From positions 1 through 12,969 of IMG/VR virus record IMGVR_UViG_2529292908_000006: a stretch of DNA of 12,969 nt; one strand, written 5' to 3'. This DNA comes from a virus (Duplodnaviria > Heunggongvirae > Uroviricota > Caudoviricetes). Made by a program: the position numbers and the translations under genes. How positions within the stretch are numbered: the stretch's first letter is position 1; the number at the start of each line of letters is the position of its first letter. Below are positions 1,459 through 12,969 of the stretch, piece by piece. The notes beneath the pieces were generated by a model that ran no database searches, had not been told where the DNA came from, and worked only from the letters and a program-made list of their open reading frames with translations.

Positions 1459-2620
1459 TTACACATCATTAGTACCTTCCTTATTTTTTGACTGGGACGA
1501 ATTTGGGACCGATGGGTTCAGGATCGAGTCTATTTGCCGTGCGTGTTCGGTAAGGTGATTAGGTGCAAGGTGAGCATATCGACGAACCATTTCGATAGAC
1601 TCCCAGCCTCCCATTTCCTGTAACACTGACAACGGGACTCCGGCTTGAACCAGCCAACTTGCCCAGGTGTGTCTCAAGTCGTGAAATCTGAAATCATCAA
1701 TACCAGCCCGTCTCAGCGCCGCTTTCCAGGCTGTGTTTGCGTCATACCGCATCTTCCTTACTGTTGGCGCTTTCGTTCCGTCTGGTTTGGTACAGCTTTC
1801 CTTGTACACAAATACCCAACGGTGATGATTCCCGATTTGTTTTTCAAAACGCGACATGCAGTATCATTCAGCGCAACGCCAATTGCGCGGTTTGATTTAC
1901 TCTCTTCCGGGTTTATCCATGCCACCCGGCGCTGCATATCTATTTGTTGCCATTCAAGGTTGATGATGTTCGAGCGTCTTAAGCCTGTTGCCAGTGCAAA
2001 TTCAACAACAGACTTTAATGGCTCCGGACATTCATCAATCAGCCTTTGTGCTTCATGGGGCTCCAGCCAGCGGATCCGTTTATTCTTTGGTTGAGGCACT
2101 TTAATAATTGGTGCCTTATCCAGCATTTTCCATTCACGCTCTGCGGCTCTTAGTAGGGCCTTTATAAATGAAAGATGCGTAGCCTTCGTTGCAACGGACG
2201 CTGGTTTTGGCGTGTATTCTGGAACAGGTTTCCCTTTTTTCTGCATGCTTCTGCCCTGAGTTTCCAGTTTTCCTCATGACGCCGGTTCGTCATTTTTTGC
2301 ATTGCTGAATAAATTTTTGATTCAGTAATGTCTCTTAGTTGCATTCCTGCGAAATGTTGAAGCCAGAATCCGATCCGGCTTTTGTCATCGTCCAGTGATT
2401 TTTTATGTGCTTTCTCTTCAAGCCACCTGACACACGCTTCCTCGAACGTTATATCAGGTATTTCACCAAGTTTGCTGACCCGCCATGCTTCAGCCTTTAG
2501 CTTGTCATGGAGTTCTGTCGCCTGCCTTTTGTCCTTTGTTCCAAGAGACTGTTTAAATCTTTTACCGTTCGGCAATGTGAAACTGGCGTACCATATTTCA
2601 CCTCTGCGGAAGAGTGACAT
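1459..2620 (-). pseudogene. phage tyrosine integrase split into three frames by two single-base deletions in A-runs
   Basis: Three overlapping minus-strand ORFs (2620..2162, 2246..1758, 1857..1459) read as one integrase: N-term [15 protein letters not shown]-term catalytic motif [11 protein letters not shown] ... VRRYAHL. Frame breaks at cagaaaaaagggaaacct (about 2225-2245; ggaaacc where ggaaaacc would restore frame) and ttttgaaaaacaaatc (about 1836-1851; A5 where A6 would restore frame). Stop lies 14 nt from the thrW 3' end. Homopolymer sequencing error cannot be excluded. Confidence 0.75.
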
Positions 2621-3514: not shown

Positions 3515-4041
3515 TTGCGTAACTCCGATAACTCGTTAAAGCGTTCCATAAACATCCCGTAGGCATGGCCCGGTGCCAGTGGAATCACGTTGAACATCTC
3601 TGTTGCCGGGATACCTTCCAGTACAGGCCAGAAAGAGCCATCATCAAGCCCGAGATCGCGGCGTTCGGTTGCCAGCATGATGAGATCGGCATATTTCACG
3701 GGCGTACTCATAACTGGGGGTAACCCGTATTTCTCACGGATTACGGCGTCTATTTTTTCTTCCATTTGTTTATAGTCAGGAAGAAGGCGTTTCAGTGGTG
3801 CGGGAATGTCCTGGCAATACGCTTCTGTTGCATCATGCATTAACGCTTCAAAAGCAAATTCCTGCGGCACCAACTGGCTGCAAAGAACCGCATGTTGGGC
3901 GACGCTGTAGAAGTGCGAAAGATGACCGGCAAAGCGACAGATATTTGAAAGGGAAACCGCGATATCGTTAATATCGATGTCGTCTTTATTTATCCTGTCA
4001 TAATAAAAATGCTTCCCGGAAAAAGTTTTAATAAATGACAT
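3505..4041 (-). CDS. yfdR: HD-domain phosphohydrolase (5'-deoxynucleotidase-like), 178 aa, YfdR-like
   Basis: Start chosen at ATG 4041..4039 (MSFIKTFSGKHFYY) because it has SD GGAGA 7-8 nt upstream; the longer ORF from 4068 has none. Contains spaced His and His-Asp motifs (VAQHAV ... LMHDATEAY) typical of HD hydrolases. Confidence 0.7.
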   Translation of the reverse strand: MSFIKTFSGKHFYYDRINKDDIDINDIAVSLSNICRFAGHLSHFYSVAQHAVLCSQLVPQEFAFEALMHDATEAYCQDIPAPLKRLLPDYKQMEEKIDAVIREKYGLPPVMSTPVKYADLIMLATERRDLGLDDGSFWPVLEGIPATEMFNVIPLAPGHAYGMFMERFNELSELRKCA

Positions 4042-4134
4042 TTTGTTCTCCACGTATATGCGCTGCACCGCGCTGAATTCTGGTAAAAAGAATCCCTCAC
4101 CATCCGGCGATTATTGAGTAAATTACGTTTCCAT

Positions 4135-4156
4135 AAATGCCCCCGCAGGGGCATTT
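4135..4156 (-). other. intercistronic RNA hairpin with 9-bp stem and UNCG-type loop (not followed by a U-tract)
   Basis: aaatgcccc-cgca-ggggcattt between the yfdQ-like stop (4169) and yfdR-like start (4041). On the minus-strand transcript the loop reads UGCG. No U-run follows, so likely a stability or processing element rather than a terminator. Confidence 0.4.
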
Positions 4157-4168
4157 GCAGTAATGAAA

Positions 4169-4993
4169 TCAGGCGGTGAAAGTACCAATAAAGGTTTCTA
4201 CTTTGCTGTCCTTGAATTTCTCAACAAGCAGATCACGAAATTCGTTAGCCATTTCTTCCTGCACCGCCTCCAGCTGAATAATGCGCAGAACCAGTACAGG
4301 ACGATCGCCAGTGATAATACTGAGGCGTAATTTAAACGGACGTTCTTTCAGACCTTCAAACGGAACGCATTTAAATTCAAATGCCACTGGCATAATGTCT
4401 TTGGTCTTCGCTTCGACAGACTCCATCAGGGAGCGTTTGCCGCTGAAGTCATTATCTTCAAAATCAGCGGTCTGGTTTGCTTCAATCGTGATTTTACGGA
4501 CAGCCGCAGCCGCTTTTGTTGCCTGAATAGCGTCACCATTAGCATCAAAGCCCACAAGATAGTCGGCCCAGTCTTCAATCCATTCTGCCAGTGACTTCTG
4601 GGAGTTACGCTCGCCGTTAACAGACAACAGAGCAGAGAACGGTGCTGTCTTTTTCAGTTTGAGTGTGGCGGTGTTATCTGCGTGACCTGGTTCATCAATA
4701 GTACCCAGGTTAAGCACACTGACGGCACGCATATTATCAGCATCGATAAAGCAGCGGGTGCCTTCATCTGCAAGATCTTTAGAATAACGGGTAAAGTCAT
4801 CGATGCTGGTAGTGGAAAGCGCACCACGGAAACGGAAGCGATTTAAATTAAATTTTTCCAGATCATGAATGCGGAAATTCTCAGGCAATGCCACAGCATC
4901 GGCACCAATCTTACTGATAATTTCATTAACACCCTGAGCAGAAATAAGGGCATGGATTTGATTAATTGCGGTTGCGTCTAAGTTCTGAGACAT
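4169..4993 (-). CDS. yfdQ: prophage early protein of unknown function, 274 aa, YfdQ-like
   Basis: Long clean ORF; ATG 4993..4991 preceded by GAGGA about 8 nt upstream. Size and position match my recollection of YfdQ. Confidence 0.65.
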
Positions 4994-5421: not shown

Positions 5422-5470
5422 TTTGCTGCTCCTCATCATATCGACCCTGCAAGGTCGGTTGGTTTCTCCA

Positions 5471-5557
5471 CAAAACAGAGAAGAACACCTGCGGTGACTG
5501 CCGCCCGGATGGATTGGGTTATGAGCCCGTCGTCCGGTGATGTTCTTCTCTGTTTTG
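5471..5557. other. long imperfect hairpin (19 bp stem, 3-nt bulge, 46-nt loop) inside a GC-rich non-coding segment; candidate structured RNA or regulated terminator
   Basis: caaaacagagaagaacacc (5471-5489) pairs with ggtg-atg-ttcttctctgttttg (5536-5557). Region 5440-5760 is open in several frames on both strands with no convincing start or SD. Confidence 0.4.
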
Positions 5558-5859
5558 TAAAAAGAGCGATACCAGCCGGAAGCAAGTGTACAAACTGGTA
5601 CCGCGAGGACTACACACAGCATAAAGTTGTGGTACCGGGTGCCTCCCGGTGCCTGGCGAAGGTTGCACACCAGGCGGGTGGGTATCCACAGAAGGTCGAC
5701 TGTCAGCCTCAACCTTAACCCGCGTGCGCTGAGCCGCATTCACCACAACGCTAAGGATTCTCTCTGGTTGAAAATACTTAGCTGTTATGTGCCTGTCTTT
5801 TCACCACTTCAGGCTCGGTGGTATCTTGGTGTTTTCATATAGCCAAGAAGGAAATAGTT

Positions 5860-6051
5860 ATGACCAAAGAAGAAAAAATTCTTTATTTATTCCAACTATC
5901 GGTTAAGACACACACTGCATATCAGACTGCTGCCATGACATCAGATAAAAATTACAGTACGTCAGAAAACCCGATAGACGACATAAGCAAGCTTTACGAT
6001 AAGTTCGAAGCACTACTCGATAAAAAGTTTGCTGAGGCTGGGCTTGAGTGA
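5860..6051 (+). CDS. small hypothetical protein, 63 aa, acidic and probably helical, AT-rich
   Basis: ATG at 5860 with SD AAGGAAA 8 nt upstream; TGA at 6049-6051. MTKEEKILYLFQLSVKTHTAYQTAAMTSDKNYSTSENPIDDISKLYDKFEALLDKKFAEAGLE. Antisense to the surrounding early-left operon; 3' end overlaps the convergent minus-strand ORF by 39 bp. Confidence 0.5.
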   Translation: MTKEEKILYLFQLSVKTHTAYQTAAMTSDKNYSTSENPIDDISKLYDKFEALLDKKFAEAGLE

Positions 6052-6219
6052 TTGTTGAATAATCGACAAAACCCAACTTAAATTTTCGTCAGTGGGCTCG
6101 ATGCCATGTGCGGTGAGCTCACTTTTCAAAACTCCAAGCAATTCAGAGCTGATTTTCAATATATCTGCTTGATTTCTAACTATTCCCACTTTTTCCTCCC
6201 TTGGTCTACGCGCGGTCAT
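6013..6219 (-). CDS. small hypothetical protein, first ORF downstream of the pL-like promoter (68 aa from ATG 6219; 58 aa from internal GTG 6189, which has a strong SD)
   Basis: ATG at 6219 has no SD. GTG at 6189..6187 is preceded by GGGAGG with a 5-nt spacer (minus strand gaccaagggaggaaaaagtg). N-terminus from the ATG is Arg-rich (MTARRPREEK). No family recognised. Confidence 0.45.
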   Translation of the reverse strand: MTARRPREEKVGIVRNQADILKISSELLGVLKSELTAHGIEPTDENLSWVLSIIQQSLKPSLSKLFIE

Positions 6220-6396
6220 GTTTTACGCCCAAACGACTTCACAGTTATTGTTTAAAATCTGGACTTTCATTTCATACACCTGCTTTAACATGAGTGCCTA
6301 GTGGCACAACATGACTCAACGAATCATCCTGGACTTCATATGCCCCAGGCGGCTACTTCGTGGGCGTCCTGCCTGTTCGTTGTTTCTCTTGGGTAC

Positions 6397-6424
6397 ATTA
6401 TGTATCTCAAAGGTACATTGTCAA
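6397..6424 (-). promoter_or_regulatory. pL-like sigma70 promoter for the early-left operon, with an operator-like 8-5-8 inverted repeat in the spacer
   Basis: Minus strand: -35 TTGACA (rc of 6419-6424), 16-nt spacer, -10 CATAAT (rc of 6397-6402). Candidate operator TATGTATC-tcaaa-GGTACATT (6399-6419) shares the GTAC-core half-sites of the OR operators. Confidence 0.55.
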
Positions 6425-6428
6425 GTAT

Positions 6429-6450
6429 AAAAAAACCTGCCGAAGCAGGT
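6429..6450 (-). terminator. intrinsic terminator ending the cI transcript
   Basis: Minus-strand RNA ACCUGC-UUCG-GCAGGU followed by a U-run of about 7 (plus-strand A-run 6429-6435), 14 nt after the cI stop at 6464-6466. Confidence 0.7.
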
Positions 6451-6463
6451 TCATAAACATTGA

Positions 6464-7138
6464 TTAGGCTTTGATTTTGTATCTTCTTGGTTTTCCTGAG
6501 AAAATCACTGTACCAATTATAGAGCAATTACCGTTGATCTTAATGTAAGGCTCAGGCCAGTTTGGGTTTAACGCTTTGAGATAACGCTGTGTCCCATCTT
6601 CTATTAACCTTTTGAAGGTGGTTTCACCTGTATCGTGCATCAATGCAATAACGTCGTCACCGTGGCAGGCAGGTACTTCAGGATCGACAAAAATCATGTC
6701 TCCCGGGCGGTACTCATCAATCATTGAATCACCTATCACCCGCAAGATATAAGTCATTTCCCCACAGGGTACAGGGCAGGGATACGTTTCTGCTGTGCTC
6801 AAATCAACCTCAGAATATCCAACTTCTTTCCATGCTCCGGCCTGTACCCATGATATGACAGGGACTAATGTGATTTGTTTATTAGTGATTGAAACATCAG
6901 GTTTTTTTGTGATGTTCGTTGTCTGGTGTTCTTGATCGAGCCATCCGACAGGTAGGTCGAAACATTTTTCGATGTGTCGTGCCATGCTGTCACCGATATT
7001 TTTAGTAGCACCATCTCCCATAAACCTGCTGGTCTGGGTTGGCTCGCGATCAATCATAGTGGCAAAGGAAGAATTCCCGCCAACACCATCTCTCAGTTTT
7101 CTGGCGTTAGACCGCCGGATGTCATGGATTGTTTTCAT
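6464..7138 (-). CDS. cI-like prophage repressor, 224 aa, N-terminal DNA-binding domain plus LexA/S24 autopeptidase domain
   Basis: C-terminal domain has the Ser motif (VIGDSMIDEYRPGDMIFVDPE) and downstream Lys (TTFKRL), and resembles P22 C2 / lambda cI as I recall them (LNPNWPEPYIKINGNCSIIG). Divergent from a Cro-like gene across an operator-containing intergenic region; own terminator downstream. Confidence 0.85.
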   Translation of the reverse strand: MKTIHDIRRSNARKLRDGVGGNSSFATMIDREPTQTSRFMGDGATKNIGDSMARHIEKCFDLPVGWLDQEHQTTNITKKPDVSITNKQITLVPVISWVQAGAWKEVGYSEVDLSTAETYPCPVPCGEMTYILRVIGDSMIDEYRPGDMIFVDPEVPACHGDDVIALMHDTGETTFKRLIEDGTQRYLKALNPNWPEPYIKINGNCSIIGTVIFSGKPRRYKIKA

Positions 7139-8968: not shown

Positions 8969-9397
8969 ATGTACGTATGGAGCGCTAAAGCAAATGGCTT
9001 TTTCCCCATATCGGAGAAAGAAAAATTTGAGGCATCAGGTCTGTGGCCTGATGATGGTGTAATAGTCAGTGAGGAAGAACATAAAAAGTTATTTATGGAT
9101 ATTCCACCAGGAAAACAGATTGGAACACTGAATGGAAAACCAGCACTGATAGATATTCCTCAGCCGACCAAAAAGGAATTAATAGCTATTGCTGAAGTTA
9201 AAAAATCCCAATTACGGGAAAAAGCTGACAGTGAAATATCCTGGCGTCAGGATGCTGTTGATGCTGATATCGCAACTGATGAAGAAGCTACAACTCTCAC
9301 CCAATGGAAGAAATACCGTGTGCTGCTGATGCGTGTTGATACGTCAACAGCACCCGATATTGAATGGCCTACGCCTCCGGCAGTTCAGGCCAGATGA
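8969..9397 (+). CDS. tail fibre assembly protein (Tfa), cassette 1, 142 aa
   Basis: Starts 2 nt after the Sv stop; conserved Tfa C-terminal motif (VDTSTAPDIEWPTPP). Typical Sv-Tfa pairing. Confidence 0.75.
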   Translation: MYVWSAKANGFFPISEKEKFEASGLWPDDGVIVSEEEHKKLFMDIPPGKQIGTLNGKPALIDIPQPTKKELIAIAEVKKSQLREKADSEISWRQDAVDADIATDEEATTLTQWKKYRVLLMRVDTSTAPDIEWPTPPAVQAR

Positions 9398-10431: not shown

Positions 10432-10485
10432 TGCAGAAATAACGAGCAAATGGCATCATTCCTGCTTTTACCAGGGGGATTTAAC

Positions 10486-11040
10486 ATGCTTATTGGCTAT
10501 GTACGTGTATCAACAAATGACCAGAATACCGATCTACAACGTAATGCGCTGAACTGTGCAGGATGTGAGCTGATTTTTGAAGACAAGATAAGCGGTACAA
10601 AGTCCGACAGACCAGGACTGAAAAAGCTGCTCAGGACATTATCGGCAGGTGACACGCTGGTGGTCTGGAAACTGGACCGACTGGGGCGCAGTATGCGGCA
10701 TCTTGTCGTGCTGGTGGAGGAGTTGCGCGAACGAGGTATCAACTTTCGTAGTCTGACGGATTCAATTGATACCAGTACCCCAATGGGGCGCTTTTTCTTT
10801 CATGTGATGGGTGCCCTCGCTGAAATGGAGCGTGAACTGATTGTTGAACGAACAAAAGCTGGACTGGAAGCAGCTCGCGCACAGGGACGAATTGGTGGAC
10901 GTCGCCCCAAACTTACACCAGAACAATGGGAGCAGGCCGGACGATTAATTGCAGCAGGAATTCCTCGCCAGAAGGTAGCGATCATCTATGATGTTGGTGT
11001 ATCGACACTGTATAAGATGTTTCCGGTCGGAGATAAATGA
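10486..11040 (+). CDS. pin: serine-recombinase DNA invertase of the Pin/Gin/Hin/Cin family, 184 aa
   Basis: ATG 10486 with SD GGGGGA. N-terminal catalytic motif MLIGYVRVSTNDQ ... VVWKLDRLGRS and C-terminal HTH. Closely matches e14 Pin as I recall it. Adjacent to the invertible tail-fibre segment. Confidence 0.9.
   Translation: MLIGYVRVSTNDQNTDLQRNALNCAGCELIFEDKISGTKSDRPGLKKLLRTLSAGDTLVVWKLDRLGRSMRHLVVLVEELRERGINFRSLTDSIDTSTPMGRFFFHVMGALAEMERELIVERTKAGLEAARAQGRIGGRRPKLTPEQWEQAGRLIAAGIPRQKVAIIYDVGVSTLYKMFPVGDK

Positions 11041-11908: not shown

Positions 11909-12969
<1,061 letters not shown>

Follow-up and report, generated by a model that had tools for sequence, protein, structure and literature searches.

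Two small genes that converge and overlap at their 3′ ends lie next to the repressor gene of a decayed lambdoid prophage in the window (the whole stretch of 12,969 nt analysed here), and make up a convergent, excludon-like cassette that occupies a phage accessory slot, an architecture that is tidy, general and not unprecedented. Both open reading frames are genuine, conserved protein genes under purifying selection, and each was always accompanied by the other among the loci we collected. With middling confidence, we propose that the pair is an excludon, i.e. that a CI-repressed early gene and an independently promoted gene opposing it would each silence the other by transcription. The pair comprises the following features:

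5860–6051, plus strand: gene encoding 63 aa, from the ATG at 5860 to the stop at 6051 (phrog_2605, homologues, dN/dS)
6013–6189, minus strand: gene in its conserved form of 58 aa, from the GTG at 6189 to the stop at 6013 (phrog_15476, homologues, dN/dS)
6013–6051, both strands: 39-nt 3′ overlap, coding for both genes (pairwise identity)
6190–6219, minus strand: non-conserved, Arg-rich extension of 10 codons from the ATG at 6219 (E. coli lineage only)

Coding evidence and co-inheritance

The 39-nt overlap recognized in the initial annotation was confirmed from the sequence and the list of open reading frames (6013–6051), as was its portrait of the plus gene as acidic, AT-rich and furnished with a Shine–Dalgarno sequence (AAGGA at 5848–5852; mildly acidic product, pI 5.0; GC 36–43%). 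That annotation had left the minus frame at 58–68 aa; the GTG start at 6189 and its GGGAGG ribosome-binding site (6195–6200, inside the extension) stood, but the ATG at 6219, which would give 68 aa instead of 58 aa, did not. The in-frame upstream ATG and the peptide MTARRPREEK were limited to the E. coli lineage, other homologues beginning at the GTG or ATG of the 58-aa form, and starts and ribosome-binding sites were conserved for both the 63-aa and the 58-aa products.

The absence of intact frames from related prophages had been named as the outcome that would undo the idea, and both frames proved intact. Across ten diverged DNA haplotypes (Nei–Gojobori method, non-overlapping codons alone), the plus frame had a dN/dS of 0.11 and the minus frame one of 0.17, each with 0 in-frame stops, while all other frames contained 9–37 stops and gave ratios near or above 1, save the antisense frame that mirrors third-codon positions (0.20–0.28). 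Variable columns were dominated by the third codon position in both genes (23, 15 and 44 columns at first, second and third positions over 51 codons of the plus gene; 22, 11 and 31 over 37 codons of the minus gene), and a one-codon indel leaves the minus frame intact. As double coding would predict, the ten haplotypes agree more closely within the overlap (mean pairwise nucleotide identity 92%) than outside it (75%). In a few E. coli copies the plus gene is frameshifted within A-runs (loci L042 and L043; proteins P0002, P0008 and P0011) next to an intact minus gene; these could be sequencing errors, decay or phase variation.

The plus gene corresponds to RefSeq WP_000159356.1 (a hypothetical protein) and to SfII_36, the only one of the two genes annotated in Shigella phage SfII. 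Its homologues keep the frame down to 37% identity, and the most distant of them conserve the motifs MT.EEKV and I...Y.K.E.LLDKKL. The minus gene, whose 58-aa product is also acidic (pI 5.2), specifies on its own a domain found at the C-terminus of larger proteins (120–200 aa) encoded by the first pL gene of other phages. A HMMER search of the whole library with the minus profile returned only 15 relatives, none of them annotated, and many of these are the 120–200-aa proteins with the 58-aa sequence as C-terminal domain. Some of these fusions carry phrog_1744 as N-terminal module ('MxKxEPxI...'), others a ymfJ-like N-terminus (seen in phrog_2982), and one (P0040) a Cys-rich, zinc finger-like N-terminus; a Pfam scan of the N-terminal extensions, including that of P0040, gave no match.

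Sensitive profile and structure searches, which the initial annotation had put forward as a check, returned nothing specific. Neither protein found a family in Pfam, NCBIfam or PADLOC, PHROGs offered only families of unknown function for the pair (phrog_2605, phrog_15476 and phrog_2982), and HMM searches against PDB sequences produced nothing below E = 0.3. Each protein was modelled as a two-helix hairpin of moderate quality (pLDDT 73 for the plus protein, with helices at residues 3–28 and 38–59; pLDDT 69 for the minus protein), and the plus model had zero Foldseek matches in the PDB. Neither sequence has a hydrophobic or transmembrane-like segment, the maximum 19-residue Kyte–Doolittle means of the two being 0.46 and 0.80.

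Intact homologues of both frames were found by protein searches at 64–84% identity in several genera, and the pair occurs in loci from E. coli, Shigella phage SfII, Kluyvera, Atlantibacter, Klebsiella and an Edwardsiella phage, with identities falling to about 37–45%. Leader-based and protein-based fetches gathered 189 loci, of which 69 contained the pair, on opposite strands every time and with no locus holding a single member, so that the check on co-occurrence suggested at the outset came out at 69 of the 69 loci carrying either gene; since the loci were collected through the genes or the leader, these counts are not an unbiased census. Three distant relatives of the minus domain, looked up afterwards, each had an overlapping convergent plus homologue (37–45% identity; 21–27 nt overlap), and Edwardsiella phage EPP-1 showed the same arrangement, the convergent gene in the three relatives and EPP-1 encoding 58–62 aa and overlapping the 3′ end by 21–33 nt. 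The plus gene thus tracks this domain through many rearrangements. The pair is nonetheless rare: it occurs in 63 of 5,426 complete E. coli genomes, vs about 850 for the promoter-like block described below.

An exchangeable slot between the pL leader RNA and an opposing block

The window is an E. coli chromosomal segment that runs from proA and tRNA-Thr into a decayed lambdoid prophage of the SfII/CPS-53/e14 type. The early-left genes of this prophage are yfdT, a DUF551 gene, yfdR, yfdQ and yfdP; to the right of the repressor lie cro/ymfL, tail-fibre fragments, pin and IS5. The prophage is a remnant, with its integrase broken into three open reading frames (1459–2620, minus strand). We also noted a Pin-type invertase (10450–11040, plus strand), an IS5 transposase at the right edge of the window (11977–12969, plus strand) and a weak IS009-like Rfam match within a tail-fibre-assembly-like gene (9165–9348, plus strand; 48.6 bits vs a gathering score of 117). 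The features that surround the pair are:

6464–7138, minus strand: CI-like repressor of the LexA family (YmfK/CohE), protein-identical to K-12 e14 YmfK
6433–6452, minus strand: intrinsic terminator of the repressor (cI) gene
6397–6424, minus strand: pL promoter, TTGACA-16-CATAAT, near consensus (11/12; promoter scan)
6318–6382, minus strand: pL leader RNA, a conserved structured element of 65 nt at the 5′ end of the transcript (covariation)
6223–6291, minus strand: 22-codon remnant (MLKQVYEMKVQILNNNCEVVWA followed by a stop), the 5′ end of the first gene (91–98 aa, phrog_3195) of another cassette
5824–5848, no strand assigned: hairpin between the block and the plus-gene Shine–Dalgarno sequence, arms TCTTGG and CCAAGA (covariation)
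5791–5827, plus strand: promoter-like block facing pL, GCCTGTCTTTTCACCACTTCAGGCTCGGTGG then TAT..T (conservation)

The pL promoter lies directly past the cI terminator (6452–6433) and is flanked by GGTACAT operator-like repeats; its sequence is the same in e14 and nearly the same in EPP-1. The first intact gene downstream of pL is the minus gene, and the plus gene runs against the operon, just as the initial annotation had it (pL at 6424–6397, and the strands of the two frames). Between 5460 and 6360 a terminator scan saw no candidate site on either strand, and with no intrinsic terminator between the two genes or promoters each transcript must be antisense to the other gene.

The 65-nt leader element consists of three helices in which 98% of alignment cells are paired, and its covariation is strong (58 double-change cells vs 13 in shuffles), the signal collapsing when partners are slid. 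At least 120 IMG/VR contigs contain it, upstream of many first genes that are unrelated to one another, and its covariance model also recovered it in K-12 e14 (upstream of ymfJ), SfII and a Klebsiella prophage; the e14 copy, with an insertion and a broken pair, scored 74 bits vs 95 for that of the window. No Rfam family matched within the leader. Support is limited to this element, as the whole 203-nt leader folds no better than shuffled sequence (z = −0.44). In many loci the leader is trailed by a hairpin and an rrn-type boxA (GCTCTTTAACAA), and in locus L181 it is followed by a separate putL-like sequence. An identification of the leader as HK022 put RNA was rejected, its covariance model giving no match at putL or putR even with filters off, and a putR-like second copy was not found in the window.

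On the far side of the pair, the block contains TTCACC (5800–5805), a 16-nt spacer and TGgTATCTT, with the TG at 5819–5820 and the −10 hexamer at 5822–5827. It lies directly upstream of the plus gene in every cassette. Of 143 unique leader loci, 58 have it on the strand opposite to the leader, at a distance of 450–870 nt downstream; e14, where it precedes ymfI, is among them. Ahead of non-homologous plus genes it keeps T, A and T at positions 1, 2 and 6 of the −10 hexamer as well as the TG. This pattern suggests an extended −10 promoter that would fire against pL; its score of 8/12 hexamer matches falls under the threshold of a simple scan. Readings of the block as a minus-strand promoter or a terminator were dropped by eye, no acceptable −10 hexamer or U-tract being seen.

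The arms of the hairpin at 5824–5848 covary across non-homologous cassettes, and the structure was more stable as RNA in the pL direction in 20 of 23 variants, the window's own variant not being among them. It is better explained as a structure of the pL-direction RNA, so the block may also have a role in the pL transcript. The adjoining non-coding region of 436 nt, which separates the plus gene from yfdP (5425–5860, minus strand), is highly structured as pL-direction RNA (z = −6.1); automatic annotation calls it ymfH or a frameshifted hypothetical protein. Within it, 5557–5779 is related to the STnc100 family although it lies below the gathering threshold (STnc100/PasD-like, Rfam RF02076; 39.5 bits vs a gathering score of 47, E = 8.8e-6), and a hairpin at about 5445–5556, with a stem of about 25 bp, has a loop core that recurs in 95 of 193 loci. 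A second STnc100-like match, in the yfdR–yfdQ intergenic region (3998–4177, minus strand), is very weak (19.8 bits, E = 0.96).

Cross-locus alignment identified the leader RNA and the block as two conserved flanks, between which we found at least eight non-homologous cassettes, nearly all of them convergent pairs overlapping at their 3′ ends. Those catalogued are:

Window: plus gene 63 aa, minus gene 58 aa, 3′ overlap 39 nt
E. coli O157 and others: plus gene 81 aa, minus gene 91–98 aa, 3′ overlap 83 nt
K-12 e14 ymfI/ymfJ: plus gene 113 aa, minus gene 102 aa, 3′ overlap 63 nt
L074 type: plus gene 78 aa, minus gene 108 aa, 3′ overlap 33 nt
L078 type: plus gene 74 aa, minus gene 120 aa, 3′ overlap 38 nt
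L181 type: plus gene 147 aa, minus gene 142 aa, 3′ overlap 83 nt

The proposal that the AT-rich region is acquired cargo was well founded, the region being a swapped-in cassette by locus alignment and by the non-homologous cassettes in the same place; the local dip in GC content on which that proposal leaned is real (36–43% over 5775–6224 vs 48–59% leftward). The 22-codon remnant upstream of the minus gene shows that the present cassette replaced another and marks a recombination joint, which accounts for the spurious extension rich in Arg.

Among first pL genes, some relatives (L078, L006 and related loci, and the E. coli record of hit H17) were noted to encode a C4 zinc finger of the ClpX type (Pfam zf-C4_ClpX, E = 2.5e-9), confirmed only in L078, which has a different cassette. 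This hints that products of first pL genes may target host proteolysis or adaptor machinery.

Mechanism and alternatives

The geometry is that of an excludon: convergent neighbours with a 39-nt coding overlap and no terminator between their promoters. The minus gene opens the CI-repressed early-left (pL) operon, being its first intact gene, and its product is expected only upon induction or infection. A conserved extended −10 promoter of its own, head-on against pL, would serve the plus gene; transcription from it would run antisense across all of the minus gene, as would pL transcription across all of the plus gene. In a lysogen the plus protein would be made and leakage from pL damped; once the repressor is cleaved, strong pL transcription would silence the plus gene and let the minus protein build up. 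Each product is predicted to be a small, soluble, acidic helical hairpin, and because the plus protein always occurs with the minus-protein domain, they probably act on one another or share a target.

This regulation is read from the sequence and from the e14 analogue; antisense control, which the initial annotation had raised, is plausible. The e14 ymfI–ymfJ pair is among the convergent excludons derived from RNA-seq (PMC12288877). Late in SOS induction, e14 ymfJ rises by a log2 of 4–4.8, with its protein detected, and ymfI by only 1–2 (PMC11002266), and in a dam mutant ymfJ is the top up-regulated gene (PMC11741368). The e14 'YmfT' iModulon includes ymfJ and leaves out ymfI (PMC12132413).

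The main rival to the excludon switch is that the two genes are functionally unrelated, the plus gene being a self-promoted moron (for lysogenic conversion or against other phages) and the minus gene an ordinary early gene; their joint travel would then be owed to their overlapping ends and to recombination at the flanking leader RNA and block. We consider this possible, if somewhat doubtful. Cassette borders do coincide with the conserved flanks, the joint in the window holds the remnant of another cassette, the region is AT-rich relative to its surroundings, and the regulation of ymfI is separate from that of ymfJ. Against independence, the plus gene stays with the C-terminal domain of the minus protein despite rearrangements that end exactly at the N-terminal border of this domain, bringing in three different N-terminal modules and different upstream genes, to about 40% identity. 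Most of the catalogued non-homologous cassettes, moreover, repeat the layout of convergence with overlap, which therefore looks selected.

A further reading, unlikely as we judge it, is that the slot is a hotspot for 'state-toggle' cassettes, in which an effector expressed in the lysogen (e.g. an anti-phage or host-modulating protein) and an early-lytic antagonist would be hard-wired by obligate head-on transcription, the 63- and 58-aa proteins forming a helical heterocomplex. If this were true, such cassettes, K-12 ymfI/ymfJ included, would represent a kind of prophage defence or self-immunity module not described before.

The initial annotation had raised a toxin–antitoxin or abortive-infection/exclusion module, in which one protein would be toxic or phage-blocking and its partner, as protein or antisense RNA, would neutralize it. 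No positive evidence for this emerged, and we regard it as distinctly improbable. The pair is a two-gene cassette beside an immunity region that is swapped as a unit, and its convergent 3′ overlap resembles that of prophage type I systems such as txpA/RatA and bsrG/SR4. Neither protein, however, matches PADLOC, Pfam or NCBIfam, and with no hydrophobic segment neither is the small hydrophobic peptide of a type I toxin or a membrane-associated protein of the SieB/Rex type, for which no PHROG annotation was found either. The geometry does give fully mutual antisense transcripts, as would be expected if an antisense RNA overlapped the toxin mRNA of a type I system, but the partner here is a protein gene under purifying selection, both members being conserved proteins rather than RNA. 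Nor is the layout the co-directional, autoregulated operon of a type II system, and no recognizable toxin or antitoxin fold was seen. A small lambda N-like antiterminator with an antisense-encoded modulator, also entertained at the outset from the position after pL and from the 68-aa reading with an Arg-rich N-terminus in the E. coli lineage, is scarcely credible, given that the extension is not conserved and homologues begin at the GTG or ATG, that the protein is acidic (pI 5.2) and 58 aa long, that the boxA motif GCTCTTWA is absent from 6190–6400 and no Rfam or Pfam match was obtained, and that the leader instead holds a conserved structured RNA ahead of many unrelated first genes.

Significance and comparison with known systems

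An unannotated small open reading frame and a 'hypothetical protein' now make up a defined, conserved gene pair. In prophages of the e14/SfII type, commonly carried by E. coli, Shigella and Klebsiella, the early-left operon begins with a slot in which convergent two-gene cassettes can be exchanged. Because K-12 ymfI/ymfJ is one such cassette, the idea is testable in a standard laboratory strain. If the head-on layout enforces expression in the lysogen vs the lytic state, it would offer a compact, portable switch design, and the slot would be a place for finding new phage accessory functions. The pL leader RNA, for its part, may bear on how early transcription is handled in these N-less phages.

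Several known systems share parts of this architecture. The lambda N-type antiterminator is a basic protein of about 100 aa; like N with nutL, the minus gene comes first after pL, but its acidic 58-aa product has no conserved arginine-rich motif and the leader has neither boxA nor boxB. Lambda rexAB, sieB and BstA of BTP1 are also accessory cargo beside an immunity region, although these are larger or membrane proteins that do not form an overlapping convergent pair, and no sequence similarity to them was found. The type I systems txpA/RatA and bsrG/SR4 share the prophage location and the convergent 3′ overlap but combine a non-coding RNA partner with a hydrophobic toxin peptide, whereas the pair described here consists of two conserved soluble proteins. 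HK022 put RNA resembles the leader as a structured RNA of approximately 65–70 nt directly after pL, with the strings CGAAC.GGC and GGATGA common to both, yet putL and putR go undetected by the covariance model of the leader.

Excludons consist of convergent genes with overlapping transcripts that undergo transcriptional interference and RNase III cleavage. The present pair is likewise convergent, and its transcripts must overlap, with one gene in a repressor-controlled operon and the other apparently self-promoted; it differs in that the coding regions themselves overlap and in that the arrangement, known here from sequence, is a mobile phage cassette. The proteins of e14 ymfI/ymfJ are non-homologous to those of the window (113 and 102 aa vs 63 and 58 aa), and homology between the pairs was rejected at an hhalign probability below 1%. 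The e14 pair nevertheless occupies the same slot, with an identical repressor protein (YmfK), the same pL and a diverged copy of the leader RNA, and its convergent genes, overlapping by 63 nt at their 3′ ends, are accompanied by a block that matches that of the window over 5790–5845 with 89% identity.
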